Assembly: GCA_964361185.1 (NCBI GenBank)
Contig: CAYHZS010000001.1
Coordinates: 1-48,043 of the forward strand
Length of the DNA: 48,043 nucleotides
Source of the DNA: an uncultured Candidatus Saccharibacteria bacterium
GTDB lineage: Bacteria; Patescibacteriota; Minisyncoccia; Phycocordibacterales; VMEP01
Direction of reading: 5' to 3'
Part shown: piece after piece, positions 9,028 through 45,290 of the stretch
Position numbering within the stretch: the stretch's first letter is position 1
How the letters are laid out: the number at the start of each line of letters is the position of its first letter
Notes under the pieces: model-generated
Database searches by the model: none
What the model was told of the DNA's origin: nothing
Seen by the model: the letters and a program-made list of their open reading frames with translations, nothing else
Position numbers and translations under genes: made by a program

Positions 9028-9064
9028 TTTTCCCGGGTGAAATTACAAAAAATATTAATATTCC

Positions 9065-9772: not shown

Positions 9773-9812
9773 AGTGTAATCTGTTTTTTGTGAATAAGGG
9801 TCAAAAAATTAT

Positions 9813-10054: not shown

Positions 10055-10790
10055 AAAAATCTTTTTTGGTAAACAAACATTTCAATCTTTTTGGAGGGGA
10101 CTATTTGATATTTCAATTGAGGGAATGAATATAGGAACCGGGGGACGTAATTTTAGTGAAAGCGGAGAGGAATACGCCATGAGATACGCGCTAAACAAAG
10201 AAAGCTGTCCTGTTGTCTTTGACGTCGGTGCCCAGGGCGGGGATTACACTAAAAACATAATAGAGTTTACTCGGGGAAAAGCCGAGATTTACGCTTTTGA
10301 GCCGTGCCTCAGAGATTATCTGGAGCTTGAAAAACAATTTGAAAATAAGGTGACTCTTATCAACAGCGCCCTGGGGGAAATAGAGGGAGAAGGGACTCTC
10401 TATTATCCTGAAAATACGAGAGGTTTAAGTTCTCTATATAAACCGGGGAAGGAATTCGACAGGAGCGAGAAGGTGAAAATAGAAACTCTGAACGGTTTCT
10501 GTGCGCGAAACGGAATAAAAAATATAGATTTGCTTAAACTTGATACCGAAGGCAACGAACTAAAATGCCTTATGGGTTCAAAAAATATGCTAAAAAATAT
10601 AAAATTCATACAATTCGAATTTTCCGTATCCAGCCGTGATTCACGGACATATTTTAAGGATATTTTTGAATTTCTGTCCGATTACAAAATCTACCGAATA
10701 CTTAAGGACGGGCTCTATGAAATAAGAAGTCCCGAAAGAATCACGGAACTCCTATTCACCACAAATTACCTGGCCGAAAGAAAAAATTAA
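10038..10790 (+). CDS. FkbM family methyltransferase
   Basis: VFDVGAQGGDYT (motif I), IYAFEP, DLLKLDTEGNELKCL. Start taken at ATG 10038 (MKKLIKK) rather than the track start at 10011. Confidence 0.8.
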   Translation: MKKLIKKIFFGKQTFQSFWRGLFDISIEGMNIGTGGRNFSESGEEYAMRYALNKESCPVVFDVGAQGGDYTKNIIEFTRGKAEIYAFEPCLRDYLELEKQFENKVTLINSALGEIEGEGTLYYPENTRGLSSLYKPGKEFDRSEKVKIETLNGFCARNGIKNIDLLKLDTEGNELKCLMGSKNMLKNIKFIQFEFSVSSRDSRTYFKDIFEFLSDYKIYRILKDGLYEIRSPERITELLFTTNYLAERKN

Positions 10791-17585: not shown

Positions 17586-18296
17586 TTATAACATCCCAAA
17601 ACGATACTTTAGCATATCCCTTGCCGTAGTCATGATTACGTTTGGTTTCGCTCCGGAAGGAAGCCCCTCCGTACGCAAAAAATGGGTGACTGGGAACTGG
17701 GCGACTTTAAATCCCGCCCTTTTGGCCTTGATTATCATTTCGGCGTCGATAAAACAGCTCGGGCTTTTTATTTCAAAACTGTCCAGAACTTTGCGCCTGT
17801 ATATCTTCATGGCGCAGTTAATGTCCCTCACCCAGACAAAAAATAAAATACGTATGAGCCAATTATAAACCTCGGACTGAATTTTGCGCTGTAAAGAAGC
17901 CGCTTTTTTTGTAACATAACCACTTATCACATTCGCCGTGTCCAAGAGATGTAAGTATGGTAAAAACTCGCGCACGTCGTATTGATTATCTCCGTCGGTG
18001 TACATCACATAGTCATATTTGGCGGCATTAAATCCGTCGCGGAGCGCCGCTCCATAGCCCATATTTTTGATATGGTGTATGACGCGCACATTGGGAAATT
18101 CCCGCGCCAATTTGTCCGCCACTTCTCCCGTCTTGTCGGGACTACCGTCATGAACGATTATTATTTCATAAACATCGGTTATTTCCTTAAGAAATTTGCT
18201 GACATAAGGCACCAGAGTAGACAAGTTTTTCTCGTCATTGTAAGCAGGGCAGAAAAACGACACGGAGCTAAGCCTGCGAGGCATTTGTTTATTCAT
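17586..18296 (-). CDS. GT2, DPM1/GtrB-like polyprenyl-phosphate glycosyltransferase (soluble form)
   Basis: SFFCPAYNDEKNL, IIIVHDGSPDKTGEVADKL, NMGYGAALRDGF, YTDGDNQYD. Confidence 0.75.
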   Translation of the reverse strand: MNKQMPRRLSSVSFFCPAYNDEKNLSTLVPYVSKFLKEITDVYEIIIVHDGSPDKTGEVADKLAREFPNVRVIHHIKNMGYGAALRDGFNAAKYDYVMYTDGDNQYDVREFLPYLHLLDTANVISGYVTKKAASLQRKIQSEVYNWLIRILFFVWVRDINCAMKIYRRKVLDSFEIKSPSCFIDAEMIIKAKRAGFKVAQFPVTHFLRTEGLPSGAKPNVIMTTARDMLKYRFGML

Positions 18297-19956: not shown

Positions 19957-20481
19957 TTAAAAACGTTCTGTCACAAAACCTTCTTCGTTGACCTTCCCGT
20001 GTACCTTCGCCGGATTGCCGTATGCAAGGGCAAAGTCCGGAATACTTTCGGTAACAATCGAACCGGCGCCGACTAAGGCGAATCTTCCGATTTCCACATT
20101 CGGCAGAATAATGCTTCCAGTTCCTATTGATGCGCCGTAATGTATTATAACTGAACCGACATCCCAATCATCCGCTGATTTTAGCTTGCCGTCCGGATTG
20201 ATGGCCCGCGGATTTTTATCGTTTGTCACCACCACATGCGGGCCGATAAATACCCCGTCTTCAATAATCGCTTTATGATAAATGGAGCAGTTGTTTTGTA
20301 TCTTACAGTTATTGCCGATATCGATTCCAAAATCTATATACACATTTTTGCCGATAATGCAGTTTGATCCTATGTTTACGTTTTCACGTATCTGAACATA
20401 ATTCCATATTTTCGTATCTGCTCCGATAACAGCCTTCTCACTTACTTCCGCGGTTTTGTGTACAAAGAATTTTTTTTCCAT
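19957..20481 (-). CDS. Left-handed beta-helix (hexapeptide) sugar N-acetyltransferase, WbpD/WlbB-like
   Basis: Hexapeptide repeats (IGADTKIW, IGSNCIIGKNVYI, IGNNCKIQNNCSIY, GVFIGPHVVVTND, GAGSIVT). Layout and length match WbpD-type 3-amino-sugar acetyltransferases. Lies 1 nt from the adjacent genes on both sides. Confidence 0.75.
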   Translation of the reverse strand: MEKKFFVHKTAEVSEKAVIGADTKIWNYVQIRENVNIGSNCIIGKNVYIDFGIDIGNNCKIQNNCSIYHKAIIEDGVFIGPHVVVTNDKNPRAINPDGKLKSADDWDVGSVIIHYGASIGTGSIILPNVEIGRFALVGAGSIVTESIPDFALAYGNPAKVHGKVNEEGFVTERF

Positions 20482-20482
20482 A

Positions 20483-21424
20483 TCAGATTACAATTTTAAG
20501 GGCCTCGATTGAATCGCTGACATTATTTATTTCCCAGTTTTTCACACCTGATAAGAAATGAACCAACTCCTCTTTCAGGGGTTCTTTTTTTGACACATAA
20601 ACTTCCTTCTCTGTAGCTTTGCTTGAAATAGACACGAATTCATAAAATGAGCCGTCAAACTTTGTATTAAGAATCTTGTCGCGCAATATAAGCTTTTGCC
20701 GGATATAATCGATTTCTGCGTATCCATCGGTTCCACTGACAAACAGCTTCCTCATTTTTACCGGAGTTATCCAATTCGTCTGTATAACTCCCGTTATTTT
20801 ACCGTATTCAAGAATCATCGTGGAGGAATCGGCGGTGTTTTTTGAAAAAAGCTTTGTCCTAAGAACTCTTTTTTTATCGGGTACCCTTCCAAGCAGATAA
20901 TTGAATACGTCCACATCGTGAATGCCCAGGTCTAAAGCGACATCAGATGCCTGCTTAGGAGGCGCAATCCCAACGCGGATGGCAAGAAGGCTTATAATTT
21001 CGCCCATTCTCCCCTCAGATATTATTTTTTTGAGCTTAACAATCGCCGGATTGAATCTTTCAACATGCCCCACCATAAGAAGCACGCGGTTTTTTTTGGC
21101 GCATTTGAGCATTTCCCGCGCCTGTTTGGTATTTTCCGCTATCGGCTTTTCAATAAGCGTCGGGATTTTTTTGTTCAAACAGTCAAAAACTATTTTCTTA
21201 TGGAGATGAGTTGGAACAACCACCGAGACGGCATCGAGCTGTTCTGCCCCAATCATTTGACTGTAATCTTTGTAAAAACGGGCTCCGTACTTATCGGCAA
21301 CCTCTTTTCCTAATGTTTCATTAGTGTCCGAGACGGCAACCAAATCCGCAATCTTTGAGAAAATTCTTGCGTGATTTTTGCCCATATTGCCGACACCAAT
21401 AACTCCCACTTTATTCTTTTTCAT
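20483..21424 (-). CDS. Gfo/Idh/MocA family oxidoreductase, WbpB-like
   Basis: KVGVIGVGNMGKNHARIF Rossmann N-terminus and EKP motif (LIEKPIA). Sits between a DegT aminotransferase gene and a hexapeptide acetyltransferase gene. Confidence 0.75.
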   Translation of the reverse strand: MKKNKVGVIGVGNMGKNHARIFSKIADLVAVSDTNETLGKEVADKYGARFYKDYSQMIGAEQLDAVSVVVPTHLHKKIVFDCLNKKIPTLIEKPIAENTKQAREMLKCAKKNRVLLMVGHVERFNPAIVKLKKIISEGRMGEIISLLAIRVGIAPPKQASDVALDLGIHDVDVFNYLLGRVPDKKRVLRTKLFSKNTADSSTMILEYGKITGVIQTNWITPVKMRKLFVSGTDGYAEIDYIRQKLILRDKILNTKFDGSFYEFVSISSKATEKEVYVSKKEPLKEELVHFLSGVKNWEINNVSDSIEALKIVI

Positions 21425-22527
21425 TTCGCAGCTTTTTTTATTAGGCTAACCATAAGATCAATCTCTGAATTCTTAAGGAATGGATGAACCGGCAAAGAAA
21501 GAACCTGATTGGAAAGCGTTTCGGCGACCGGATACATTCCTTTTTTGTACGGAGTAATTTTTTTTATGTGCGGCTGCATTGGAATAACTGACGGATAGTA
21601 GACGGCTGATCGTACTCCATTTTCAAGTAGGTATTTGATGAGCTCCGCTCTCTTTATCGGAAAATCACCGGTTATACGCACGGTAAACTGATGATAAGCA
21701 TGAGCTGTCCCGTCGGTAGATTCGGGCAGAACAAGACCTGGTATATTTTTTAGTTTAGTTACCAATCTGCGCGCATTTTGATTTCTTTTTTCCGTCCATT
21801 GCTTTAAGTTACCTATTTGAGCAAGTCCTATTGAGGCCAACACGTCAGTCGAGCGGTAATTGTATCCAATATGATGGTATATATACGGCTTCTCCTGATC
21901 TTGCCCGTGCTGTCTGAATCTCCTGGCAAATTCATAAATTTCATTATTGTCGGTAACCAAAGCTCCTCCCTCTCCCATCATGATATTTTTCGTCGCGTAA
22001 AAAGAAAAGCAAGCAACATCAACCCACTTGGCTATAGGCTTTTTCATATAAGAAGCCCCGATCGCCTGGCATGAATCGCTGATAACTTTCAGGTTGTGCT
22101 TTCTGGCTATTCTTCTTATCTTTTCGTAATCGCACGAGAGGCCGTACAAATCAACTGTCAGAATAGCCTTGGTTTTTTTGGATATCTTGGCCTCGATAAG
22201 GTCAGGATCTATATTGAAAGTGCCTTCTTTTATGTCGACAAAAACCGGTTTTGCGTTGCACATAAGAATCGTATTTGCCGTAGCGATAAAAGAAAACGGT
22301 GTGGTTATAACCTCATCCCCTTTTTTTAGGCCCAGGGATGCCAATGCGGTATGCAATGCCGCTGTTCCGGAATTAACCACGGCGGCATATTTTGTACGAT
22401 TAATATCGCAAAGTTGCCTTTCAAGCTCCTTGACTCTTTCCCCTTGCGCCAGGAATCCCGAGAGCAAGACTTTTTTTACCTCGTCTTCGGTTTTTTTATC
22501 TATGAAAATTTTAGTGATATTTATCAT
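21421..22527 (-). CDS. DegT/DnrJ/EryC1/StrS family PLP-dependent sugar aminotransferase, WbpE-like
   Basis: Typical family length and blocks (NSGTAALHTAL, ITTPFSF, DSCQAIGA, SFYATKNI with the PLP lysine). The start could be 22527 (MINITK...) or 22557. ATGA overlap with the downstream gene. Confidence 0.8.
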   Translation of the reverse strand: MINITKIFIDKKTEDEVKKVLLSGFLAQGERVKELERQLCDINRTKYAAVVNSGTAALHTALASLGLKKGDEVITTPFSFIATANTILMCNAKPVFVDIKEGTFNIDPDLIEAKISKKTKAILTVDLYGLSCDYEKIRRIARKHNLKVISDSCQAIGASYMKKPIAKWVDVACFSFYATKNIMMGEGGALVTDNNEIYEFARRFRQHGQDQEKPYIYHHIGYNYRSTDVLASIGLAQIGNLKQWTEKRNQNARRLVTKLKNIPGLVLPESTDGTAHAYHQFTVRITGDFPIKRAELIKYLLENGVRSAVYYPSVIPMQPHIKKITPYKKGMYPVAETLSNQVLSLPVHPFLKNSEIDLMVSLIKKAAK

Positions 22528-22683
22528 CTTTTGATTTTTAGCGCAATACCCCTTCATCGGCCATATTCATTCTTAAGCCGAGTAGGCTGGCGTTGATTAT
22601 CCTCTTTCGTACCACATTCTACAACCATTCGCAAGGAAACCGCATTTGCTTAAAGAACTGCCGGGCTTTATCAGGAAAGACTA

Positions 22684-22700: not shown

Positions 22701-23159
22701 ATGTTTAATTTTTTCGTGTCGCAATTTAAAAATCCGCGGCTTGTCATAAAGTATGCAACTTCCGGCGGAATCGCTTTCATTGCCCAGATGGGAATGCTTA
22801 TATTTTTGGTCGAGTACTTCCAGATGTGGCATATTTACGCGGTATTATGTGCTTTTGTTTTCGCGGCTACAATAGCCTTTTCTTTGCAAAAATTCTGGAC
22901 ATTCAGAGACCATTCCCTTGACGGCGCCCACTTTCAGATGGCTATGTATGTTGTTTTGGCTTGCGTAGCTCTTTCTCTTAATGTTCTGCTGATGTATATT
23001 TTTGTCGATATTTTAGGCATTTGGTACGTTATATCGCAAATAATCACCATCGGGTTGGTTGCAATGGTCACTTTTTTATGCAATAAGAATATTATATTTA
23101 ACAGAAAATTGAAACTGTTTCGCCGGGAACCTGAAGCATCGGAGATTGCGGAAAAGTAA
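22701..23159 (+). CDS. GtrA family membrane protein (putative lipid-linked sugar translocase)
   Basis: 152 aa with four hydrophobic helices. KYATSGGIAFIAQMGMLIFLVEY and SLQKFWTFRD are typical of GtrA-like proteins. Confidence 0.75.
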   Translation: MFNFFVSQFKNPRLVIKYATSGGIAFIAQMGMLIFLVEYFQMWHIYAVLCAFVFAATIAFSLQKFWTFRDHSLDGAHFQMAMYVVLACVALSLNVLLMYIFVDILGIWYVISQIITIGLVAMVTFLCNKNIIFNRKLKLFRREPEASEIAEK

Positions 23160-23215
23160 AATTATTAACCAGCGCTATTACATGAATAAGACAGAAGAAC
23201 AAAGCTGCAGAAAAA

Positions 23216-24589
23216 ATGACAGAATTCTTAAAAAATCATAAGACGGAAATTTTTATTTTTCTTCTGGCTTTAATAGTCAGGATGATTTTGTTTTTTGTGT
23301 ACGTCCATGCGAACGAAGGAAACATTGACGGAACAATACACGGACAAGACGGCTATTACGAACTGGGAAAGAGCCTAATCGCGGGAAAAGGCTTTTCATG
23401 GGACGGCGTCTTGCCGAGTCCTTTCCATGTGCCTCTTTTCCCTCTATTTCTTGCCGTATCGCTTTTCTTGTCCGGCAGTCTATTGCCGGCTCTTGGTTTG
23501 CAGATGATACTGGGTGCTATCGTGCCTGTGCTTGGAAGGAGAATCTCCCTCAAACTTATATCCTCCGAAAAAATAGGTTTTTGGATCGGTCTGACACTCG
23601 CCCTTGAGCCGAATTTTATCCTGCATTCATTCATTTTTTACTCCGAAACTTTATTCTTATTCTTGTTCTCCCTCTTTATCCTTTCGTTTATATCGTATCT
23701 TGAAAAAAAAGACGTCAAAATTCTGTGCTTAAGCGCGTTTTTGCTCGGAATTTCGGTACTTACCAAAACAGTCGTGCAGTTTTTGCCAATTCTGCTTATA
23801 CCGCTTATGTGGTGGTTCCTACGCAAAGATTATACGACTAAAAAAATAGCCATTCACAGCGCTTTATTCGTGGCTATTTTTATCCTGGCTATTTCCCCGT
23901 GGTTTTACCGGAATTACCGCACTTTCGACACCATAAGCACAACAGTAATGCCCACTTACAACCTTTACAGTTGTTTTGTCCCTTCGGTGCTGGCCATAGC
24001 CAACCGCACTAGCTTTGCCGAGGAGCAGAAGAATTTTACTGTCGGCAAGCCAAACAACATTCTTAATATTACTTTCGCGAATACTTCAGTATTTAACCGC
24101 GAAGCACTCGAAACGATAAAGAAGTACCCATTGGCGATTCTTGAAGTTTCAGCCATAAATGTCCTTACTTTCTTTACCCACGACGGAATACTGACGGTAA
24201 TTGAGAACGCCGGTATTCACCCGAAAAGCTACCTTTCCAAACCGGCCATAATACTTCTCTTCTCGTCGCCGTATGAATTTGTAAAAGTTATCTCTAAATA
24301 CCTCTGGTCTCCTTTTGTCCTGGTGCTTATCATGAGACTATTTTGGATTGCGATAACAGCCACTTTTTTATGGGGAATTATCGTGCTCATGCGAAAGAAA
24401 GAGGTGACAGCTTATATTGCCTTTGCTTTGGTTCTCGTGGCTTATTTTGCGCTTACGACCCCATCTAATGGCTTGTGCGCGAACGGCAGATTTCGAATGC
24501 CGGTTGAGCCGGTAATTCTGGCCGTATCTTATTACGGCATTTACTATTCTCTTCTCCGTTTTGGCAAAAAAGGGGGAACGCTAACCTAA
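23216..24589 (+). CDS. GT-C fold membrane glycosyltransferase (ArnT/PMT_2, GT39/GT83-like)
   Basis: About 11-12 transmembrane segments. The first loop GQDGYYELGKSLIAGKGFSW...FHVPLFPLFLA resembles the D-x-x-Y...G-x-GF...PLYP signature of ArnT/PMT_2 proteins. Confidence 0.7.
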   Translation: MTEFLKNHKTEIFIFLLALIVRMILFFVYVHANEGNIDGTIHGQDGYYELGKSLIAGKGFSWDGVLPSPFHVPLFPLFLAVSLFLSGSLLPALGLQMILGAIVPVLGRRISLKLISSEKIGFWIGLTLALEPNFILHSFIFYSETLFLFLFSLFILSFISYLEKKDVKILCLSAFLLGISVLTKTVVQFLPILLIPLMWWFLRKDYTTKKIAIHSALFVAIFILAISPWFYRNYRTFDTISTTVMPTYNLYSCFVPSVLAIANRTSFAEEQKNFTVGKPNNILNITFANTSVFNREALETIKKYPLAILEVSAINVLTFFTHDGILTVIENAGIHPKSYLSKPAIILLFSSPYEFVKVISKYLWSPFVLVLIMRLFWIAITATFLWGIIVLMRKKEVTAYIAFALVLVAYFALTTPSNGLCANGRFRMPVEPVILAVSYYGIYYSLLRFGKKGGTLT

Positions 24590-28087: not shown

Positions 28088-28207
28088 ATGATGTCAACAA
28101 TCTATAAGTCAAAGCAGGAGACATGCCTTATAACCGGCGGAGTCGGTTTTATCGGGTTGCATTTGGTGGAGACGCTCCTAGACCAAGGTCACCGCGCAGT
28201 TGAGTAA
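28088..28207 (+). pseudogene. 39-codon N-terminal remnant of an extended-SDR sugar epimerase/dehydratase gene
   Basis: MMSTIYKSKQETCLITGGVGFIGLHLVETLLDQGHRAVE* carries the TGGxGFIGxHL Rossmann motif and then stops. It overlaps, antisense, the last 59 nt of the minus-strand methyltransferase gene. Confidence 0.6.
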
Positions 28208-28844
28208 TCTTCTCCCCTTCCACAACAAACGAAAGACTGAAAGCGTTTGGCGTAATTTCTGAAAGATTTTTTGTGATATACCTAAAATAAGGAACGGACT
28301 CAAAAAATGTATTTGTTCTCAATTTTACAACCTTGAGACCAACTTGACCAAACATGTTCCGGAGAATTGGCAGATTAAACCAGAATACATGACCTTTCTT
28401 GGGTCGATTATTTTCCGGGACTTTGCCGAATATAACTTGAAGCCTGGCTGGCAAAGAATTGAAATTTGGGACGCTTACGATAACGTGTTTTTTTGAAACG
28501 CGGACTGCTTCCCTCAAAAGAACCTCTGGATCATAAAGATGCTCTAAAAGGTCAAGCATCACGACGGTATCAAATGTATTGTCATTAAATGGAATCCTGC
28601 CGTTAAAGTCAAAAATAGAGGCTTTAAGGCCCTTTGAGAGCGTTTTTGCCACTCCTTCTTCCGATATATCCAAGCCCTCTCCTAATATGCCTTTCTGCCT
28701 CAAAAGGGATAGGAAGAGCCCGTCGCCTGAACCAAGGTCAAGGACTGTTCCATCATTAATCATACCGAGAGCCGCTTCGTGGCGGAAGCTAATAACCTGG
28801 TCATCTCTACCCCACCTGTCGTTTTCGAATTGTTTTACATTCAT
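28149..28844 (-). CDS. Class I SAM-dependent methyltransferase
   Basis: VLDLGSGDGLF (motif I), GLDISEEGV, VVMLDLLEHLYDP. The last ~20 codons (..TQLRGDLGLGASPPNATR) are encoded antisense to the SDR remnant. Confidence 0.75.
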   Translation of the reverse strand: MNVKQFENDRWGRDDQVISFRHEAALGMINDGTVLDLGSGDGLFLSLLRQKGILGEGLDISEEGVAKTLSKGLKASIFDFNGRIPFNDNTFDTVVMLDLLEHLYDPEVLLREAVRVSKKHVIVSVPNFNSLPARLQVIFGKVPENNRPKKGHVFWFNLPILRNMFGQVGLKVVKLRTNTFFESVPYFRYITKNLSEITPNAFSLSFVVEGEKITQLRGDLGLGASPPNATR

Positions 28845-30165: not shown

Positions 30166-31737
30166 CTACTGAAATCCTATGTTTAAAACATACTCCGCCT
30201 TTGAGTAGTAGCTGGTAATATACAAAAATCTGACTTTAAAATAGTGAATATTCCCGAGAAATAAAACAGTAAATGCGAAAACACAAGCACCTTGAAAAAT
30301 TCTAAACGCTTTATTCTTAAACTCCTGCCCAAACATAATTTCAATTTCAATAAACAGCTTATCCAGCAAAACAGCCAAAAGAGGCGGAATCATAATTAAG
30401 ACCGGAAGCATGAATCTGATTTCATGGGAAAAGTAAAATGAAAGCAAAAGATATATTTCAATAAAAACAAATATCAGTACTTCTGCCACCGTAACTATAC
30501 GCTTGCGCGCGATAAAAAAAAGAATAAGAACATAAAGAAGCGCGAAATAGGCTAGCACGACCAGCCGACTGGAACTTTCAATGTCGGAAATAAACCATTG
30601 CCCGAATCTGTAAAAGGGAAAGAACAGAAAATTGACGAAATCCCTTTCCATAATGAAACGGGCTATGTCGGCCTGCATCTCCGGCATGGAAAATATCGGA
30701 TACACCGGATTGCCGTATAGAAAGAAATTTTTCACGTACCAAAAACCGGAGATTGCCAAAGCCACAGCTGAGTACTTCATGAAATATCCGGCTATTCTGG
30801 GAAAAGACAACTTATTTTTGACAAAAAGAAATGTCAGGAACAGGCCATTTATAAGAGCAAAAAACAGGGCAATGGATTTTGAGCTCAATGCTACGCCTAA
30901 AAGTACGGCCGACAAACTCAGTTTTTTATTTTGTATTTCCGCGGACAAACAACTTTCAATCACCAAAAGTACGCTGGTTATCCCGAACAGGTAGACAAAT
31001 ACATCTATATAACCACCATGCATTATTTCTCTCTGAAAATCCATAGTAGACAAAAGAAATAAAATCGGAACAATTCCAAAAAACCTGTTCTTCAGAAAGG
31101 GTTTAGTGAACTCGTACAGAAGCACCAGAAATAGAATAAGAGCGCTATATTGAAGTATTTGGAATACATACGGATCAAGCGAGTCCCCAAAAAGAACAAT
31201 CGGAATGGCGTAAATCGTCTCCACTAAAATGGCCCTCCAGTTAAAGAACGGGCTGGCCGGGTCAAAAGCTACTCTCCCCTGCGCGACCATTTCCGAAATT
31301 ATGGGAAGGTGATACGCCTTGGTGTCATATCCGGTAACCGGTACGAACACTATAAAGAAATTTATAAAAATCCAAACGACAATCAGTAATTTCAAATATC
31401 TGTTTTCGGAAAATATTTCCCTGGTATAAAGTTTTATTCTGGAAAGAAAAGACTTCCACTCCAATAACAAGCCAAACTGGGACGCTATAATTTTCCTTTG
31501 AAGAAAGAGGATCAAAAGCGCGAGCGCGTAAAGATATGTTTTTTCAAACAAGCCGGCGAGCGCGAGCGCGAATCCCAAAATCCCCCAGAGTCCATATCCT
31601 AAAATGACGGAATAGGTAGCATCTTTGAGCGCGGATTCAAGCTTTGAACCGGACAGGCGAAAATACAGGATTCCTAGAAGATAGGCTAAGTATATGAATG
31701 CAACTGACTCTAAAAAAATCGCCAAATTATGAATCAT
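30166..31737 (-). CDS. Large polytopic membrane protein, GT-C-like glycosyltransferase or polymerase candidate
   Basis: 523 aa with more than 12 hydrophobic segments. An early loop has GYDTKAYHLPIISEM (acidic residue plus YH, as in many GT-C first loops). Last gene of a GT2-SDR-GMC operon. Confidence 0.45.
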   Translation of the reverse strand: MIHNLAIFLESVAFIYLAYLLGILYFRLSGSKLESALKDATYSVILGYGLWGILGFALALAGLFEKTYLYALALLILFLQRKIIASQFGLLLEWKSFLSRIKLYTREIFSENRYLKLLIVVWIFINFFIVFVPVTGYDTKAYHLPIISEMVAQGRVAFDPASPFFNWRAILVETIYAIPIVLFGDSLDPYVFQILQYSALILFLVLLYEFTKPFLKNRFFGIVPILFLLSTMDFQREIMHGGYIDVFVYLFGITSVLLVIESCLSAEIQNKKLSLSAVLLGVALSSKSIALFFALINGLFLTFLFVKNKLSFPRIAGYFMKYSAVALAISGFWYVKNFFLYGNPVYPIFSMPEMQADIARFIMERDFVNFLFFPFYRFGQWFISDIESSSRLVVLAYFALLYVLILFFIARKRIVTVAEVLIFVFIEIYLLLSFYFSHEIRFMLPVLIMIPPLLAVLLDKLFIEIEIMFGQEFKNKAFRIFQGACVFAFTVLFLGNIHYFKVRFLYITSYYSKAEYVLNIGFQ

Positions 31738-31748
31738 GGATTACGTGT

Positions 31749-33338
31749 TTATATAAGTGATTTTAGAAAAAGGTTCTTGACGTGTCTACCGATTCTATCA
31801 GCATTAGCCATGATGGTCAGGGCAGGGGGTTTCGCGGGCAATACCTTCCATGTCGCCGAATCCGCGATAAAAATTCGCCTTGCGTTATGCAACTGCCCAT
31901 ATTCATTCGCACTAAGTATCTGCCCAGTCACAGGACCACCGAATGGTACTCCCCCGGCATAATGAGCAGCGACACCGAAAGGATTGTGTACGGTCTTAAG
32001 GGGAACAAGGCCGAGGCGGATTAAGGATTTCTTTATCCTACCCAATTGTTTGTCTCTATCAATCTTTTTTCCCTCTGGGTTAAAATGCGAGATATCAATA
32101 AAATCTCCGCCTCCAGAGGCTTTTTTCAGGGACATAAGCATATTGGGAGCAGAGGGAAACCGCACGTCCGCGAGCATTATCGAAGGCACAAAAAGGGAGA
32201 GGAGAGACAACGCCTCAGGTTTAGGCATGGGGACATAAGGAAGCAACTTGTGAAGAAGGAGTGAATTATAGCTGTAAAGCTGTGAGTAAGAGGACTGCTC
32301 TTCATCGTAAACAGCCAGCTGGCACAAGCTATGGCGCCTTATTGTCGGCTCCTTGCCAAGCCTATTGAGTAATACGCACGGTATTATGAAATTATCTTTA
32401 ATAAGAACCGGCACCCCCTTATCAAAAAGGCCGAAACTCCTTAACAAGAGCCTTGTTGTGTTAATAGCGCCTAAAGCGACAATTACAACCTTCGCCTCGA
32501 GAGAAGACTCCTCTCCGTTTTCAATATTACTGAAACGAACAATAACATGGTCGTCGTAGTTCTCCACGCGAGTGACCAAATTTTTATCGGCATAAGTAAA
32601 ATTATCCTCGCCTAAAAGAGCTTCAAGCGTGTAGTGCCCGCGGTATACCGAACGTCCGATATTGTCCCAAAAATCCATATCGCGGTATTCCGTCTTCTTT
32701 CTTGAACCAAAATCGCTGGTAAGTAGAGCTAGGGGCGGACGGGAAACTTTGAAACCGGAACTATCAAAAAATGACCTCTTTCCATTATAAGCCTGTAAGA
32801 CCGACTGGGCATTTTCATCAATAAAAGCCGGAGGCAAAAGGTCAAAATCACTGCTGTCTCCCGAAACCCCTATTCTTTTTATGACTGCCCTATAACTTTC
32901 CTTCATCTCGTCCGGAGGCAATCCAACTGACCGGCATTCTTCATCATCGAAAAATCCGCAAACTGCCCCCCAAGCCTCGGAAAGTCCTCCTCGGGCAAGG
33001 CTTTGCAAAATTATCGCGCCGTCGGTTTTAATTGGAGAATATTTGTCCGAGGCTCTTGTGACATATGATCTGCGCCCGCTTGTCATATTCCCCGAGTGAC
33101 CGGCGCTTTCATTCGGCGCTGATACGCCGGACAAATCATCTCCTAAAAATATCCTGTGTTGAGAAGGGTCTGTACGCCTTTCTTCTTCAAATGAAACATT
33201 CTCCCCTTGTTCCAAGGTGGCAGACTCATTAAAGCCGACGTCGATCATAATCACACTGGCCTTATTTCCGACAACAGCCGAAGCCGCGTGAAGACCTGCG
33301 AGTCCGCTACCGATAATGGCAATATCAAATTTAGGCAT
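31749..33338 (-). CDS. GMC family FAD-dependent oxidoreductase
   Basis: N-terminal DIAIIGSGLAGLHAA (GxGxxG). C-terminal AAHYAGGVPFG and RIFIADSATWKVLPAKPPALTIMANADRIG match GMC C-terminal domain blocks. Confidence 0.7.
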   Translation of the reverse strand: MPKFDIAIIGSGLAGLHAASAVVGNKASVIMIDVGFNESATLEQGENVSFEEERRTDPSQHRIFLGDDLSGVSAPNESAGHSGNMTSGRRSYVTRASDKYSPIKTDGAIILQSLARGGLSEAWGAVCGFFDDEECRSVGLPPDEMKESYRAVIKRIGVSGDSSDFDLLPPAFIDENAQSVLQAYNGKRSFFDSSGFKVSRPPLALLTSDFGSRKKTEYRDMDFWDNIGRSVYRGHYTLEALLGEDNFTYADKNLVTRVENYDDHVIVRFSNIENGEESSLEAKVVIVALGAINTTRLLLRSFGLFDKGVPVLIKDNFIIPCVLLNRLGKEPTIRRHSLCQLAVYDEEQSSYSQLYSYNSLLLHKLLPYVPMPKPEALSLLSLFVPSIMLADVRFPSAPNMLMSLKKASGGGDFIDISHFNPEGKKIDRDKQLGRIKKSLIRLGLVPLKTVHNPFGVAAHYAGGVPFGGPVTGQILSANEYGQLHNARRIFIADSATWKVLPAKPPALTIMANADRIGRHVKNLFLKSLI

Positions 33339-34614
33339 TTTTTTTGATTACTCCGGGTATAAGGAAAAAAACGGCTCCCGTTATGAATTTAGCGGTAAAT
33401 CGTATCCAGGCATAAAAAATTCCGGCGGCCAAACGGGAAATTCCTGTTTTTTTCGGCAGAAGCCATTCGCTTGAAAGAGGGCTGCACTCAATAACCGCCG
33501 CGGCTAAAAAAAGCTTCTTTTGAAAAATCCCTTTCGGGTGAGAAAATCGGGTAAACGCGTCTAGAGCACCCGCAAAAAACCTGTTGCGGATAATCCACCC
33601 GCTCACGTGATGATCCCCCAGTTTATGTTTGATGATTAATTTCTCGTAAATATCGGGGTAATACGGACCGACGGGAGCGCCTGAGAGTATGTAGCTCATA
33701 AGCGCCCGCGACTCCGAGAAAGGCTCTTCTTTTTGCCGCCTCAATTCTTTTAAGCCAGCCGAAAGCGTGCGGGGATGAAAATCATATTCGCGCGAAAAAT
33801 TTTCCGGGAGCACGGGAGCATCCTGGTGCATGGCCAAAACATTACTCATTGTAAGTGGCGGTTTTTTAAAAAATAATTTCAGTAGCCTGGCCAAACCACG
33901 GCCCAGAAAAATCGGTATGTGGACTAAAGTAACCCTCCTGCCATTGACTTCGCCGGCTACCCTCTGCACCAATTTATTGAAAGAGATTTCATCGGGTCCG
34001 CCTAAATCATAGGTTACATTCCCATGGAAAGGACGGGAAATAGTTTTTCGAATGGCCAGGGCTACGTCCTCTACGTGAATAGGACGTGAAATGAACGCAC
34101 CAGGACCAAAAACCGGGACAATGGGGAGTCTGGTAGATCCGATAAGCGTCCCGAAAATACCGCTTTTAAGGTCCCCATATACGATACTTGATTTCAGGGT
34201 AATGACCGGAATACCTCCAGAATTAAATATCTCATCCGCTTTATTTTTGGTTTCCGCGTACAATCCCTTGTTTGGAAGCTTCGTGGAAACAGTGCTTACA
34301 TTTATCAATCCCAGAACCCCGTTCGCCAGGCACGCCTCCAAAAGATTTCTTGCTCCCGTGACGTTTATTTCATGGCTTTCTTCTTCGTCCGACTTTGCCG
34401 CCGCCAGATGAATTACGATACCAACTCCATCCGTTCCCTTAAGTAATGTTTCTCTATTCCGCATGTCCCCCAAACACCACTGGAGATTTTCATGATAAAA
34501 AGAAATCCTATTCGCCCCGCGGACAAAAGCGATTACTTCATGGCCTTTCTCCAGAAGTTCTCTAATTACGGCTGTCCCGATAAATCCTCCTGCTCCAGTT
34601 ACAAAGATTTTCAT
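33331..34614 (-). CDS. NAD-dependent epimerase/dehydratase-type SDR with about 120-aa hydrophobic C-terminal extension
   Basis: MKIFVTGAGGFIGTAVIRELLEKGHEV, YAETKNKAD (YxxxK). The C-terminal part contains hydrophobic segments (LFLAAAVIECSPL, FITGAVFFLIPGVI). Overlaps the GMC gene start by 8 nt. Confidence 0.7.
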   Translation of the reverse strand: MKIFVTGAGGFIGTAVIRELLEKGHEVIAFVRGANRISFYHENLQWCLGDMRNRETLLKGTDGVGIVIHLAAAKSDEEESHEINVTGARNLLEACLANGVLGLINVSTVSTKLPNKGLYAETKNKADEIFNSGGIPVITLKSSIVYGDLKSGIFGTLIGSTRLPIVPVFGPGAFISRPIHVEDVALAIRKTISRPFHGNVTYDLGGPDEISFNKLVQRVAGEVNGRRVTLVHIPIFLGRGLARLLKLFFKKPPLTMSNVLAMHQDAPVLPENFSREYDFHPRTLSAGLKELRRQKEEPFSESRALMSYILSGAPVGPYYPDIYEKLIIKHKLGDHHVSGWIIRNRFFAGALDAFTRFSHPKGIFQKKLFLAAAVIECSPLSSEWLLPKKTGISRLAAGIFYAWIRFTAKFITGAVFFLIPGVIKKNA

Positions 34615-34632
34615 ATTATGTATCTGGAATAT

Positions 34633-35322
34633 TTACTTACCGACAAAACGATTCTTAAAAATCCACCAGAGATGGCTGAACCCGGTTTTCCAATATACCT
34701 GCTTGGACTTTCCTCCCCGCTGATACTGGGAGATGCCGTACTCCTCGAATTTTATTTCCTTGCGGGAAGCGGCGTTCAGTTTAATCTGGGGGCTTAAATT
34801 CCAGTCCCCCATATTAAGACCTAATTTATCTACAACCTCCCTCCTGAACACCCACATTCCTGAAAGAATATCTTTTATTCTAATTCCGTACAGCAAAAAA
34901 ACTTCGGTGTTCAGAACCCTGACGCCCAATTGGAGCATAGGAGAAATTTGCGTCTCCTCTTTCAGGGGGTAACGATTGCACGAAATGAAGTCAGCCGGCT
35001 TGTCCAAAAGATAATCTATGACGCGTGAAAGTTCTTCTATTGGGTAAGTAAGATCTCCGTCAGCGGTGGCGATAATATCGCCCGTTGCGCTCTTCATTCC
35101 GGTCATGTGAGCAAAACCGTATCCTATTCCATTTAAAACACGGTCATCTTCCAGAGCAATAGCGCCGAGTTCTTTCGCCTTGTCCAAAGTACGGTCAGTC
35201 GATTTATTACTGACAATGATTACTTCGTCGACAAATTTTGGTATGCGGGACAGCATCTCTGGGAGATGATTCTCTTCGTTCCTGCACGGGAAATAGACGC
35301 TAATTTTCTTGCCTCGGTACAT
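34633..35322 (-). CDS. GT2, DPM1-like polyprenyl-phosphate glycosyltransferase (soluble form)
   Basis: ISVYFPCRNEENHL, IIVSNKSTDRT, TADGDLTYP. 229 aa with no transmembrane segment. Confidence 0.7.
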   Translation of the reverse strand: MYRGKKISVYFPCRNEENHLPEMLSRIPKFVDEVIIVSNKSTDRTLDKAKELGAIALEDDRVLNGIGYGFAHMTGMKSATGDIIATADGDLTYPIEELSRVIDYLLDKPADFISCNRYPLKEETQISPMLQLGVRVLNTEVFLLYGIRIKDILSGMWVFRREVVDKLGLNMGDWNLSPQIKLNAASRKEIKFEEYGISQYQRGGKSKQVYWKTGFSHLWWIFKNRFVGK

Positions 35323-42014: not shown

Positions 42015-43487
42015 TCATCCCTCAATGATTTCTATCTCCCGCGCTATTTTCTCCAGATTATCTTCCGGCCGTTCAAGCCGGCGGGTAAAAAAGACGCCCA
42101 CCAAAGCAACTGCGGAAACTCCCAGAACCCCCAACAGCCAGATATAATTTAGCCCCGTATCCTTGACTGCCAAAGCCGGGGTAGCCATATTCTCTTCTTC
42201 CTCCTGGTTGACCTCAAGAGGGGCAGTGGGTGTCTCGTTTTTCGGAACTAAAACACTCGGCTCGACACTTTTGCGGGTCGATGTATTCTCTGATTGAACC
42301 AACTTGGCAACAGCTTTGGTTTCTCCGAACCGATGGGCTAAGGTACCGTTCGGATAACGGAGTTCTGGCACGCTTCCCTCCCCGACCAGTAGACCAGTGA
42401 CTTCGTTGGGAAAAATAAGCCGCTTCCCACCCATAACAAAAGTATTTTTGGGAATTTCAAAATTTTTGTTTCCTGCCTGCGCCGTGCCCGTCGCGGCAGG
42501 CAGGTCTAAAGCAAGCCACCACCCACCCAAATCGATATTTGAATTTGAAGAGTTGTAGAGTTCCACGAAATAATCTTTGCCATCCGTTACCCTAGAAATT
42601 GAAATTGGGGAATTTTCCGCTTTCACCTTGAGCTGGTCGGAACCAGAAAAATATCCTGACCCCACATCTAGCACGACCAAATAATCTCCCGGGTAACGGT
42701 AAGCGTGTTCCACGATTTTTCCTTCTTTCATCGCTCCGTCCCCGAAGCTCCACAAAAAGCGTGCATTCTCCAGTGGCTCTTTTTTCAAGCCGTATGCTTT
42801 TCCTTCAAAAATAACTCCGGCTCCGACGACGACTATCTTGTCTTTACCCGCATCGGCAAACACTTGCGGTTCGACCGGCCAATTGGAACCCCCTGATGAC
42901 TGCGCGGGTGCGGATAATGGTTCAGGCGACGAGAACTGATTTGTGTTTTGCGTTTGACTGTCTAATACCAAGGTTGCCATTCCAGGCGCCGGTAACGCGG
43001 CAATCCAATTCCCCGAAGAATTTTTCTGGATGGAGTTGCCGTTATTTGTTGCGCTGTCCACGGGTGCGTAAGTAAAACTGTCTTCAGTTACGCTTCCTTC
43101 TGCCGAACAAGAGTTACTACAAAGTTTCAATGGTTCGCCACTACTGTTTAGATTAAACGAACTGTCAAAAAGAGCGCCGCTAAAATTCGGCCAATCCGCC
43201 AAAAAAGTGGGGGTTGAATTTGAAATAACAGCAAACGACCCTGGCTGGAGCACTGCGTCGCCACGCTCAAGTTTCAAGCCATGATTGGTATTGGCCTCAA
43301 AAAATTTATAAGTTGTTAGGTCAACAGGCTGAGGTCCGCTATTGCTGATTTCAACCCAGTCATGTTCTCCGCTTCCCTCGGTTCCCGGGAAATCATACAT
43401 TATTTCGGTAAAAACAACCCCGGCGTAAACAACCGACGGAATAAGCAATTGTATTAAGAATAAAGAAAAGGCCGCTCTCCTCTTCAT
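42015..43487 (-). CDS. Secreted, C-terminally membrane-anchored surface protein with two lamin-tail domains flanking a PKD domain
   Basis: Signal-peptide-like MKRRAAFSLFLIQLLIPSVVYAG. LTD signature VVFTEIMYDFPG...HDWVEISNSGPQPVDLTTYKF. PKD signature FLWSFGDG...HAYRYPGDYLVVLDV. Second LTD-like YFVELYNSSNSNIDLGGWWL. C-terminal helix IWLLGVLGVSAVALVGVFF. Confidence 0.7.
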   Translation of the reverse strand: MKRRAAFSLFLIQLLIPSVVYAGVVFTEIMYDFPGTEGSGEHDWVEISNSGPQPVDLTTYKFFEANTNHGLKLERGDAVLQPGSFAVISNSTPTFLADWPNFSGALFDSSFNLNSSGEPLKLCSNSCSAEGSVTEDSFTYAPVDSATNNGNSIQKNSSGNWIAALPAPGMATLVLDSQTQNTNQFSSPEPLSAPAQSSGGSNWPVEPQVFADAGKDKIVVVGAGVIFEGKAYGLKKEPLENARFLWSFGDGAMKEGKIVEHAYRYPGDYLVVLDVGSGYFSGSDQLKVKAENSPISISRVTDGKDYFVELYNSSNSNIDLGGWWLALDLPAATGTAQAGNKNFEIPKNTFVMGGKRLIFPNEVTGLLVGEGSVPELRYPNGTLAHRFGETKAVAKLVQSENTSTRKSVEPSVLVPKNETPTAPLEVNQEEEENMATPALAVKDTGLNYIWLLGVLGVSAVALVGVFFTRRLERPEDNLEKIAREIEIIEG

Positions 43488-43496
43488 ACGTATGGA

Positions 43497-45290
43497 TTAT
43501 TTTCCTAAAATTTTATTCAGAACATCTTCCGGTATTTCTTTGGGGGCGACAGGAACTTCGTCCTTTTTCTTCATCTCTTCCCATTTTTTAGTTTCCTCTT
43601 TAAGACCGTCCGCCAACGTCTCTTTTTTGCTTTCCGTTATGGAATTACCTTTCTCTTTGAGCGCGGCCGCAAGCGCGTTCCTAAGAGCGAAAGAGTTTTT
43701 CGACGGGTTTTGCTCTTGTTTTGTCTTCAGCTGAGAAAGAGAGACTGGAGGAATTGGCTGGGACGTAAAGGTCGGAGCACTTTTGCGATGATTCTCTTCA
43801 TTTTGTTTTATATTTTGTATTCTCTCTCCTCTCCCTTTTGGCGGCTCGCTGAAACGTGTTTCTACTAAGGTTTTTTCGGGCTGTGAAGATCTTATTTCTG
43901 GGCGCGATTCAATTATTTTTGGCGACCGTGGCGTTCCCCCCTCCCCAGCCACTGAATTACCAAATTCTTTTTTCCTCTCCCTTGGGGGCTTCGGGGGAGC
44001 AACTGACTCATACCATTTATTGACAGCAGCTTCTACTTCCGCGCGCGGAGTCGCGTAAATCCTCCTGGTTTCTTCCACAATGCGGTCTTTGTGGGATTCG
44101 CCCTCAAGCGCGATTGGTGGCAAGGTCGTGGCCGAAAAAGGCTTAGAGCCGATGCCATCTATCATGAGCCGGAGGTATATTTGGGAAAAGCCGAGGTTAA
44201 CCAAGTCCTCGGCCGTAAATTCCGGAATAAATTCTTTTTCAAACATTTCAGCGTCTTCTGGACCGATACGGAAAGTCACCATTGAACCGACGTTGCCGAA
44301 CACGGCGTCGCGCACTTCCTCCGGCATCTGGTTTATATACTGGTGCGCAATAGTAAGCGATAATTTATATTTGCGGGCCTCAGACAAAATGTCTGCGAAG
44401 GACTCGTTGGCAAAGGACTGAAACTCATCGACATAAAAGTAAAAATTAGGGAGCTTTTGGAGTTCAGCCGCGCTCGCGTCCGCGCGCGACATGGCTCCCA
44501 GATAAATTTTGGTCACCAGCATGTTGCCTAAAAGCGTTGAATTTTCTATTCCCATCCTTCCTTTGGACAAGTTCATTATGAGAATTTTCCTGTCATCCAT
44601 CACCTTGCGTACGTCAAAAGAAGATTTCGGCTGGCCGATGATATTTCTTATAATCGGATTAGAAATGAACTGGCCTATTTTATTTTGAATGGCTGCTCCA
44701 GCTTCCTGCATGTATTTGTCTCCGTATTTGGCAAATTCATCAACCCAAAAAGCTTTGACTGAAGAATCTGTTACGTTCTCCACCACTAGATTGCGGTAGT
44801 CTTTGTCGGCCAGCATCCTGTTTACTCCTAAAATAGTGGCGTTGGGATATTCAAGAAGAGCCAGAAGAACATTGTTCAGTATGTATTCCATGCGGGCGCT
44901 CCAGGCATCCACCCATATTTTTTTGAAAGCGTTCATGAGGCCGTTTGCCACCAAATGCCTCTTGTCGACCCCTACGTCTTCCATTACATTGAAAGAAACT
45001 GGGTATTCGGCGTCAAACGGCGCGAAATAAATCACGTCCTTGATTCTTTCTTTGGGTATGTAATCAAGCAATTTTTCCGCCGTGCCTCCGTGCGGGTCAA
45101 TGAAAGCCATGCCTTCTCCGTTTTTTATGTCCTGCACGGCCATGTTCTCAAGCATGGTGGATTTTCCCATGCCGGTTTTCCCGATTATATAGAGGTGCCG
45201 AGTACGATCTTTGGCTTTAATACCAAATTTTATTTTCTTGTTGCGAAAATCAGTTTCCGCGAAATATGTTATTTTGTCTTGGTCGCTCAT
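43497..45290 (-). CDS. VirD4/TraD-like (type IV coupling protein-like) P-loop ATPase, soluble, with long disordered K/E/P-rich C-terminal tail
   Basis: Walker A IIGKTGMGKST and Walker B-like FYFYVDEFQSF. SLTIAHQY and VGSMVTFRIG blocks are typical of the TraD/VirD4/AAA_10 group. No N-terminal transmembrane helices. The last ~170 aa are low-complexity. Confidence 0.65.
   Translation of the reverse strand: MSDQDKITYFAETDFRNKKIKFGIKAKDRTRHLYIIGKTGMGKSTMLENMAVQDIKNGEGMAFIDPHGGTAEKLLDYIPKERIKDVIYFAPFDAEYPVSFNVMEDVGVDKRHLVANGLMNAFKKIWVDAWSARMEYILNNVLLALLEYPNATILGVNRMLADKDYRNLVVENVTDSSVKAFWVDEFAKYGDKYMQEAGAAIQNKIGQFISNPIIRNIIGQPKSSFDVRKVMDDRKILIMNLSKGRMGIENSTLLGNMLVTKIYLGAMSRADASAAELQKLPNFYFYVDEFQSFANESFADILSEARKYKLSLTIAHQYINQMPEEVRDAVFGNVGSMVTFRIGPEDAEMFEKEFIPEFTAEDLVNLGFSQIYLRLMIDGIGSKPFSATTLPPIALEGESHKDRIVEETRRIYATPRAEVEAAVNKWYESVAPPKPPRERKKEFGNSVAGEGGTPRSPKIIESRPEIRSSQPEKTLVETRFSEPPKGRGERIQNIKQNEENHRKSAPTFTSQPIPPVSLSQLKTKQEQNPSKNSFALRNALAAALKEKGNSITESKKETLADGLKEETKKWEEMKKKDEVPVAPKEIPEDVLNKILGK

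Follow-up and report, generated by a model that had tools for sequence, protein, structure and literature searches.

The stretch of DNA considered here (the window) spans 48,043 nucleotides, positions 1 to 48,043 of contig CAYHZS010000001.1 (GenBank assembly GCA_964361185.1), and belongs to an uncultured Candidatus Saccharibacteria bacterium. Its minus strand carries four closely packed genes, encoding a family 2 glycosyltransferase (GT2), a short-chain dehydrogenase/reductase (SDR) extended by a helical tail, a flavoprotein of the GMC superfamily and a polytopic protein of the GT-C type (Table 1). An earlier annotation, made from the letters and open reading frames (ORFs) alone and called the sequence-only reading below, had described this co-directional set with an 18-nt gap between GT2 and SDR-tail genes, an 8-nt overlap between SDR-tail and GMC genes and an 11-nt gap between GMC and GT-C genes, and the ORF listing agrees with it. 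The overlap suggests that the two genes that share it are translationally coupled. Junctions of the same kind, where SDR stop and GMC start overlap by 8-11 nt, are found in loci from other phyla and from archaea (L002, L004 and L086 in the survey described below), which argues that the packing of the four genes is not due to chance. Intergenic gaps of 92 nt upstream and 212 nt downstream bound the unit, within a longer minus-strand run of glycan genes. We lean, if only slightly, towards the view that this unit specifies a glycosylation route by way of a polyprenyl-phosphate sugar, with redox editing built in.

Table 1. Positions of the four-gene unit, its parts and two neighbouring genes in the window.
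Feature	Positions	Strand	Description
GT2 gene	34633..35322	minus	229 aa, ATG start
SDR-tail gene	33331..34614	minus	427 aa, ATG start
Extended-SDR catalytic core	33724..34614	minus	residues 1-297 of 427; Pfam Epimerase 1.2e-19
Tail domain	33334..33723	minus	residues 298-427; all-helical, ~130 aa, fused to SDR
Long C-terminal helix of the tail	33361..33441	minus	residues 392-418; helix in the AlphaFold2 model; predicted membrane anchor
SDR-tail stop / GMC start overlap	33331..33338	minus	8 nt, ATGCCTAA; SDR stop within the first GMC codons
GMC flavoprotein gene	31749..33338	minus	529 aa, ATG start
GT-C gene	30166..31737	minus	523 aa, ATG start
Class I SAM methyltransferase	28149..28844	minus	231 aa; Pfam MetW 4.6e-22; possible accessory enzyme
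GtrA-family protein	22701..23159	plus	152 aa; Pfam GtrA_DPMS_TM 3.1e-20; 7 kb from the four-gene unit

We begin with the flavoprotein. Many of its homologues carry PF05199 and one carries PF00732, and a phmmer search of the Protein Data Bank (PDB) with the single sequence retrieved LivQ (3.6e-6) and pyranose 2-oxidase. When a family profile built from 52 homologues was run against the PDB, it matched, over three segments, the alpha subunit of the FAD-dependent glucose dehydrogenase (FAD-GDH; 6a2u, 5.5e-26), LivQ (1.5e-20) and fructose dehydrogenase (7w2j, ~2e-17). Further profile matches include bacterial pyranose oxidase and 7qf8, presumably a glycoside 3-oxidase, while choline oxidase comes far behind, at ~1e-6. 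Among the 52 members, the conserved positions are G10/G12/G15, D33, G117-G118, W123 and D493; the GxGxxG ADP-binding motif and the acidic D33 that ends strand beta-2 are invariant or nearly so. A catalytic histidine, His459, is present in 50 of these sequences and aligns with the corresponding histidine of LivQ and FAD-GDH. On the evidence of these profiles, the 529-aa protein is a member of the GMC superfamily whose nearest solved relatives all act on sugars, and it is predicted to be the oxidase or dehydrogenase of a lipid-linked sugar.

The partner reductase is built on an extended SDR core. In the AlphaFold2 model of the 427-aa protein (mean predicted local distance difference test, pLDDT, 88) the core is matched by Foldseek to GalE, RmlB, the EvdS6 decarboxylase and NDUFA9, and the hallmarks of the fold are invariant or nearly so among homologues: GxxGxxG (G7-G13), S107/T108/S110 and Y119xxxK123. 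This predicts an NAD(P)H-dependent ketoreductase. After strand beta-2, where NAD-specific enzymes have an acidic residue, lies Arg32, and the SDR coenzyme rules suggest from this residue a preference for NADP(H). As read directly from the sequence, neither the SDR nor the GMC protein has a signal peptide, the latter beginning straight with its FAD motif; since, in addition, the tail ends in a hydrophobic helix, action at the cytoplasmic face of the membrane fits.

We turn next to the tail. No family matched when five tails were used to search Pfam at E up to 1, and a tail profile run against PDB sequences at E up to 10 gave nothing beyond two chance-level matches; in a Foldseek search with the SDR-tail model, SDR matches dominate and the tail is uninformative. 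Two glutamates and a tyrosine are conserved in the tail across phyla. The maximum 19-residue Kyte-Doolittle hydropathy has a family median of 1.9 and reaches at least 1.6 in 54 of 72 homologues. Using iterated hidden Markov models (HMMs), the tail was detected in 71 of the 85 loci with a strong GMC match, directly upstream of the GMC gene in 69, and it comes fused to the SDR, as a standalone ORF of 125-160 aa or, once, fused to the GMC protein. An independent profile, built solely from tails of the Candidate Phyla Radiation (CPR) and run against 1.84 billion representative proteins, matched 1,171 cluster representatives, 693 of them at E up to 1e-10; the best 150 matches are nearly all SDR fusions of ~420-450 aa or standalone proteins of 125-160 aa, together with a few shorter ones that are possibly fragments. 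The tail is, in short, a soluble conserved helical domain with a single terminal hydrophobic helix, whose genetic link is with the GMC gene and not with the SDR, and we propose that it is an adaptor that binds the GMC protein and anchors it to the membrane. The idea that it is a homologue of the small subunits of FAD-GDH or fructose dehydrogenase was entertained and is unsupported by any PDB sequence or Pfam match, so that the likeness is one of analogy only. Being C-terminal to the SDR, the tail cannot bear an N-terminal (twin-arginine translocation, Tat) signal.

How far does this association extend? Close homologues of the GMC protein number 70 in a set of 5.8 billion proteins, where they are named as CPR bacteria and Nanoarchaeia, and a degenerate-pattern scan of species-representative genomes returned at least 333 relatives in many phyla, including Peribacteria, Acidobacteriota, Gemmatimonadota, Planctomycetota, Myxococcus, Pseudomonas brassicacearum, Asticcacaulis and Nitrospira. 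ORFs were called in 85 loci and in the window, then searched with the window proteins and with iterated HMMs; architectures were tabulated for the 64 non-redundant loci that have at least 2.5 kb of flank on both sides. The SDR adjoins the GMC gene in 49 of them. The fused SDR-tail lies upstream of the GMC gene in 22 loci, as in the window; SDR, tail and GMC are three genes in 8, the order is tail, GMC, SDR in 11, an SDR is adjacent with no tail detected in 8, and in only 2 loci are both the adjacent SDR and the tail lacking. Each of the three possible pairs also occurs as a fusion protein, SDR-tail commonly, tail-GMC in P0040 and GMC-SDR in L023, and because these fusions link all three parts they argue for a physical SDR-tail-GMC complex. 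SDR, tail and GMC are thus a three-part module, present in many bacterial phyla and in some archaea. The tail-GMC fusion is a 667-aa protein from a metagenome contig, and the GMC-SDR fusion an 846-aa protein of Bacteroidetes UBA1941 (7962-10502 of its locus); each was seen once and may be an artefact of assembly or gene calling.

The two glycosyltransferases would link this module to lipid-linked sugars. The GT2 protein matches Pfam PF00535 (6.7e-20); in NCBIfam it comes closest to AglJ, Dol-P-hexose transferase, PpgS and ArnC, without reaching any of their (equivalog) cut-offs, and in the PDB it matches the Pyrococcus Dol-P-Man synthase (5mlz, 2.3e-14 over residues 2-222), followed by ArnC. 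It is predicted from these matches to be a polyprenyl-phosphate monosaccharide synthase. Hydropathy analysis of its 229 residues revealed no transmembrane or hydrophobic segment, and C-terminal helices of the GtrB/DPM1 type or a GtrA-like domain are absent; in relatives, the GtrA domain is a separate gene or part of a fusion. Among the loci surveyed, the GT2s closest to that of the window belong to other SDR-GMC loci (33% identity and 1e-36 for the fusion protein of L004, 30% and 2e-29 for the DPANN locus L002), and those found beside close relatives of the GT-C protein are less similar, which argues that this GT2 subtype and the redox module travel together. A scenario where the SDR-GMC pair had been inserted into an ancestral GT2/GT-C pair was rejected on the same comparison.

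For the 523-aa protein, Pfam and NCBIfam gave a single weak match, to LIC_10190 (5e-4), with no Pfam family matched, and a PDB sequence search returned nothing. Structure was more telling. The AlphaFold2 model, computed from 23 homologues (pLDDT 89, predicted TM score 0.91), has about 12 transmembrane segments, and its top 21 Foldseek matches in the PDB are all GT-C enzymes: ArnT, ALG3, EmbA/B/C, AftA/B, Pmt1/2/4 and DPY19. The probability is ~1.0 for the top five and 0.80-1.00 over the 21, with weak E values (best 4e-3) and a TM score of 0.48 (ArnT). Three of the 23 homologues match Pfam PMT_2 and one is named GT39. By hhalign, the family aligns with the GT-Cs of Pseudomonas, which are PMT-like proteins of 815 aa, and of Terriglobia and Planctomycetota (99.6%, E 1.5e-23) and with those of Vulcanimicrobiota (100%); the Pseudomonas member of the matched cluster itself hits PMT at 9e-7. 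Judged by this model, the protein has a GT-C fold rather than that of a Wzy polymerase, a ligase or a transporter, and it is predicted to be the consumer of the edited polyprenyl-phosphate sugar. D138 is invariant in the motif TGxDTxxYHLP, after the transmembrane helix that follows a Lys/Arg-rich loop; by the positive-inside rule alone, the D138 loop would lie outside the cell. Four close CPR relatives of the protein each adjoin a small GT2 gene, one of them also a GtrA gene, and none has SDR-GMC: as the GT2 neighbour is kept without it, the redox pair is an optional add-on to GT2/GtrA/GT-C.

We may now return to what had been surmised before any search was made. The sequence-only reading had a small DPM1/GtrB-like GT2, and the curated and PDB matches are indeed polyprenyl-phosphate-sugar synthases; its oxidase, distinct from DprE1, is of the GMC type and not of the VAO/PCMH type, and its best profile matches are sugar oxidoreductases, well ahead of choline oxidase; its GT-C-like protein is seconded by the model and by matches that include no Wzy, ligase or transporter. 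Two points need retouching. Conservation of the four-gene order, which it had wished to see checked, holds for the content of the module, SDR-tail-GMC with GT2, GtrA and GT-C nearby, and fails for the exact order, which varies among loci. The hydrophobic SDR tail of ~120 aa likewise survives as the terminal hydrophobic helix seen across the family, the rest of the tail being soluble.

Across phyla, SDR, tail and GMC are linked not only with one another but also with GT2, GtrA and GT-C genes. We counted neighbours within 7 kb of the GMC gene in the 56 loci of at least 15 kb: a GT2 is present in 38, a polytopic GT-C-like protein in 25-31, both in 28 and either in 41, an enrichment as judged against general expectation only. 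Individual loci give the detail. In Paceibacterota (L004, L005) a PMT_2-GtrA-GT2 triple fusion lies immediately upstream of SDR-tail and GMC. In L086, whose GMC protein is 54% identical to that of the window, SDR-tail, GMC, GtrA and GT2 follow one another with overlaps at the junctions (4 nt between GMC and GtrA), and L087 has PMT_2 and GT2 on one side and SDR-tail, GMC, GtrA and a methyltransferase on the other; in these two closest relatives, the GtrA gene directly follows the GMC gene. The Nanoarchaeia loci (L002, L003) associate STT3/AglB, GPT, a Wzx-like flippase, SDR-tail, GMC, GT2 and a PMT-type GT-C, so that in DPANN archaea the module sits within an AglB/STT3 N-glycosylation cluster. 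In Pseudomonas brassicacearum (L062) and its relatives we find the 815-aa PMT-like GT-C, an AglJ/PpgS-like GT2, a methyltransferase, GtrA, SDR-tail, GMC and WecB. A Rhizobium plasmid locus (L089; Rhizobium ruizarguesonis TA1 plasmid pTA1_2, record 119361-130186), whose genes bear only generic names from the Prokaryotic Genome Annotation Pipeline (PGAP), comprises GT2, a 656-aa hypothetical protein, a membrane domain of the LPG-synthase type, an epimerase, a HAD-IIIA hydrolase, a GHMP kinase, SDR-tail and GMC. Methyltransferases similar to that of the window also lie beside SDR-GMC in L001, L002, L004, L062, L086 and L087, and in 11 and 5 further loci.

Two side observations belong with these loci. 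The triple fusion of L004 (3206-5737) is a single polypeptide of 843 aa that holds all three Gtr-type components, the PMT_2 GT-C, GtrA and GT2. The SDR-tail/GMC pair is found on 56 Rhizobium plasmids, of which one locus, that just described, was inspected; this host is experimentally tractable.

These data can be assembled into a pathway as follows. At the cytoplasmic face, the GT2 would move a monosaccharide from a nucleotide sugar onto polyprenyl phosphate. The GMC protein, kept at the membrane by the terminal hydrophobic helix of the tail, would then convert a single hydroxyl of the lipid-linked sugar into a carbonyl, and the extended SDR, tethered to the GMC protein via the tail, would reduce that group from the other face at the expense of NAD(P)H, yielding an epimer; alternatively, the reduction would fix another modification made at the keto stage. 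A GtrA-type protein would flip the product, and the GT-C would pass the sugar to an acceptor outside the membrane. The GtrA protein of Table 1 is a candidate for the flippase of the pathway, the assignment of this particular copy being presumptive. The data show the fold or family of each of the four proteins and the genetic linkage; the substrate, the order of the redox steps, their regiochemistry and net reaction, the assembly of SDR, tail and GMC into a physical complex and the acceptor of the flavin electrons are all features that we infer. The sequence-only reading is upheld at every point that computation could test, and the epimerising oxidation-reduction that it put forward would follow by analogy. 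The module is probably an auxiliary redox editor of a polyprenyl-phosphate sugar, an epimerase analogous, and not homologous, to DprE1/DprE2. A more elaborate proposal, which we put forward tentatively and hold to be possible rather than likely, is that SDR, tail and GMC form an unrecognised membrane-tethered oxidase/reductase complex of three parts that epimerises polyprenyl-phosphate sugars, or edits them in another way, before they are flipped, as a non-homologous functional equivalent of DprE1/DprE2 with a wide spread among bacterial phyla, CPR bacteria and DPANN archaea included, the tail being a new domain that docks SDR and GMC together and may complete a GMC active site lacking its second catalytic residue.

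The comparison with the mycobacterial system is worth developing. DprE1 and DprE2 form a complex (PMC9993113). In both cases a polyprenyl-phosphate sugar is worked on first by an FAD oxidase and then by an SDR that uses NAD(P)H, and the product is taken up by a GT-C (here by proposal); GtrA-like and GT-C genes are found close to those of the pair. DprE1, however, has the VAO/PCMH fold, whereas the oxidase here has the GMC fold, and no VAO-type gene was seen among the window ORFs examined; DprE2 is a classical SDR of ~250 aa, whereas the extended SDR of this module has, within its 427 aa, a C-terminal substrate domain and the tail, a third, linking element without counterpart in DprE1/DprE2. 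The lipid-linked sugar of that pathway comes from a UbiA-type phosphoribosyl pyrophosphate (PRPP) transferase, while here it is predicted to come from a GT2 and a nucleotide sugar. Homologues of DprE1/DprE2 also occur in Gram-negative systems that add arabinofuranose, while the module described here is spread over CPR bacteria, DPANN archaea and numerous further phyla. As its parts are not homologous to DprE1/DprE2, the four-gene system is not a member of that family.

Other systems offer partial parallels. Pentofuranose three-component systems use auxiliary epimerases (the SDR ORF13, or DprE1/E2) to diversify the transferred sugar, and the authors of that work knew of no other epimerases in three-component systems (PMC11127046). 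The likeness to GtrA/GtrB/GtrX systems lies in a polyprenyl-phosphate-sugar synthase, a small flippase and a GT-C, with an optional cytoplasmic epimerase as an add-on; the pentofuranose systems have a PRPP-dependent synthase, while here we find a DPM1/AglJ-like GT2 and a GMC-tail-SDR editor. In the ArnC/ArnD/ArnE-F/ArnT, Lgm and Flm/NaxD pathways, a GT2 makes the undecaprenyl-phosphate sugar, which is edited on the lipid and, once flipped, becomes the donor of a GT-C. The window GT2 and GT-C count ArnC and ArnT among their nearest solved relatives, but editing in these pathways is hydrolytic, by a deformylase or deacetylase, and here it would be redox. In Rhizobium etli, the SDR WreQ reduces a keto sugar only once it is on the carrier lipid (PMC11626204); its substrate is linked to undecaprenyl diphosphate and owes its keto group to a dehydratase acting on the nucleotide sugar, and, unlike here, there is neither flavoprotein nor GT-C.

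As for the flavoprotein itself, the closest solved relatives by profile are the Burkholderia FAD-GDH gamma-alpha-beta complex and the Gluconobacter fructose dehydrogenase. In both, the gene for the catalytic GMC subunit is directly preceded by that for a small subunit, the place that the tail takes here. These complexes differ in having a Tat signal and a cytochrome subunit, neither of which is present here, and the system at hand is predicted to be cytoplasmic and biosynthetic, not respiratory. Pyranose 2-oxidase, glycoside 3-oxidase and LivQ (6'''-hydroxyparomomycin oxidase) are GMC enzymes that oxidise C2, C3 and C6 hydroxyls of glycosidically bound sugars and have the catalytic histidine in common with the window protein; they are, however, soluble, act on free or aglycone-bound sugars and have kept the second catalytic Asn/His, replaced here by a proline. 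Full-text searching of open-access papers and preprints brought up neither this module nor any GMC/SDR pair at work in polyprenyl-phosphate glycosylation, although prior work may exist elsewhere.

Several observations weigh against a redox-edited glycosylation route and have to be kept in view. Taken alone, the window GMC protein misses the Pfam GMC models and matches only an FAD-binding N-terminus. At the position of the second catalytic Asn/His it has Pro504 (proline in 35 of the 52 sequences, asparagine in 6), so that the usual residue is missing; the adjoining Lys503 is kept in 46. The helix that ends the window tail is only borderline hydrophobic, at 1.52, under the 1.6 threshold. In 13 of the 64 loci, tail and GMC occur without an adjacent SDR, about a quarter of the long loci have neither GT2 nor GT-C within 7 kb of the GMC gene, and GtrA is absent from the four-gene unit itself. 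To our knowledge, CPR bacteria and DPANN archaea are generally without quinones, which leaves the electron acceptor of the flavin unexplained. Finally, AsnB-like amidotransferases are frequent neighbours (in the Peribacteria loci and in L001, L007, L008, L012, L014, L086 and L087), a hint at uronic-acid chemistry rather than simple epimerisation.

This last point leads to an alternative where the sugar would still be edited on the lipid, with no net epimerisation: the GMC protein would oxidise C6, as LivQ does, towards a uronic acid, with amidation or decarboxylation to follow, or else the keto intermediate would be aminated or C-methylated before reduction by the SDR. LivQ, a C6 oxidase, is among the nearest solved GMC relatives; AsnB-like genes flank SDR-GMC in several loci, and the window has one at 142-1545; methyltransferases recur beside the module, a UDP-glucose-dehydrogenase fragment follows the GMC gene in L004, and decarboxylases, EvdS6 for one, are among the matches to the SDR fold. 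Yet most loci have no AsnB-like gene and that of the window is 30 kb off, an FAD oxidase with an NAD(P)H reductase is the classic arrangement of a two-enzyme epimerase, and we know of no SDR that turns aldehydes into acids. All in all, we find this alternative unlikely, while giving it some weight. We give rather less to the possibility that SDR and GMC act on a soluble nucleotide sugar or on the finished glycan, their linkage to GT2 and GT-C reflecting nothing but a shared glycan pathway. The resemblance of the SDR core to NDP-sugar epimerases and dehydratases, and the many loci with the nucleotide-sugar genes WecB, GHMP kinase and HAD phosphatase, would agree with it, but the tail family has a hydrophobic anchor helix, genes for GtrA and for GT2s of the polyprenyl-phosphate type adjoin or overlap the module and are sometimes fused to each other, and no GMC enzyme is known to us to act on nucleotide sugars.

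The substrate might also be a membrane lipid, either the polyprenol or dolichol carrier or a 3-hydroxy lipid, as with cholesterol oxidase and 3-beta-hydroxysteroid dehydrogenase. The GMC superfamily does include cholesterol and long-chain-alcohol oxidases, the module is predicted from the tail helix to be membrane-anchored, and the SDR weakly matches the 3Beta_HSD, HpnA, OleD and SdmB models. Every one of these SDR matches is nevertheless far under the family cut-off, the best GMC profile matches are all sugar oxidoreductases, and the neighbourhood is dominated by glycosyltransferases, not by isoprenoid genes, so that we consider a lipid substrate very improbable. Nor do we see much room for the notion that the four genes are unrelated neighbours with no common pathway. 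Lying in a glycan island of more than 40 kb rich in GT4, GT2 and sugar-modifying genes, and in an order that is not kept exactly elsewhere, they might have been so regarded; the same gene set is linked across phyla and in both prokaryotic domains, with overlaps and fusions, and these conservation data already contradict the notion, to which we grant next to no likelihood.

Editing of a sugar on its carrier lipid is known from few systems, DprE1/E2, ArnD/NaxD, WreQ and ORF13, and DprE1 is a leading target for drugs against tuberculosis. If redox editing by the SDR-tail-GMC module is true, it would be a second, non-homologous and far more widespread oxidase/reductase editor, and a new source of rare sugars for surface glycans. 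It would give a function to well over 1,000 protein clusters that are now named "FAD-dependent oxidoreductase", "NAD(P)-dependent oxidoreductase" or small hypothetical protein, the tail would define a new domain family, and the surface chemistry of CPR and DPANN cells, almost unknown so far, would become open to a first approach. With homologous loci in culturable strains of Pseudomonas brassicacearum and Rhizobium, the idea is directly testable.

The rest of the window deserves a brief description. It is a glycan-biosynthesis island that exceeds 40 kb and is rich in glycosyltransferase (GT4, GT2) and sugar-modifying genes: several GT4, three GT2, a GtrA gene adjoining a second, PMT_2-like GT-C, DegT, GFO/IDH/MocA and hexapeptide-transferase genes, as well as an RmlD-methyltransferase fusion, an AsnB-like gene, a GT11 gene and a B12 radical-SAM (S-adenosylmethionine) gene. 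Named homologues of the window proteins are from Patescibacteria, Parcubacteria and Paceibacterota, which points to a probable CPR origin of the contig. Scans for consensus promoters and terminators gave counts equal to the shuffled expectation, i.e. at chance level, and a scan for tRNA genes found none. The second GT-C candidate (457 aa; PMT_2 2.6e-4, under the Pfam cut-off) comes directly after the GtrA gene (22701-24589 for the two, plus strand), and a separate small GT2 of 236 aa is encoded at 17586-18296; together, these three proteins may make up another lipid-linked glycosylation system of the island, independent of the first.

Some further genes may be mentioned. A 554-aa fusion (15831-17495, minus strand) joins an RmlD-like dTDP-4-dehydrorhamnose reductase domain to a class I SAM methyltransferase domain. 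At 19957-22557 (minus strand), genes for a hexapeptide acyltransferase, a GFO/IDH/MocA oxidoreductase and a DegT aminotransferase follow one another, a row that presumably recalls a route of the WbpB/WbpE/WbpD type to 3-acetamido sugars. At the edge of the island, the AsnB-like gene mentioned above is on the plus strand, its glutamine-amidotransferase domain being matched only in part, and a B12-binding radical SAM enzyme is encoded at 3627-5423 (minus strand). Just past the island, a TraG/VirD4-like coupling ATPase adjoins a surface protein with lamin-tail and PKD domains (42015-45290, minus strand). Among the surveyed loci, finally, a membrane-anchored protein of ~700 aa of the sulfatase/phosphodiesterase family (LtaS/EptA-like) is encoded near tail-GMC in L044 (9631-11748) and in three others, these loci being from Deltaproteobacteria, Gemmatimonadota and Aminicenantes.

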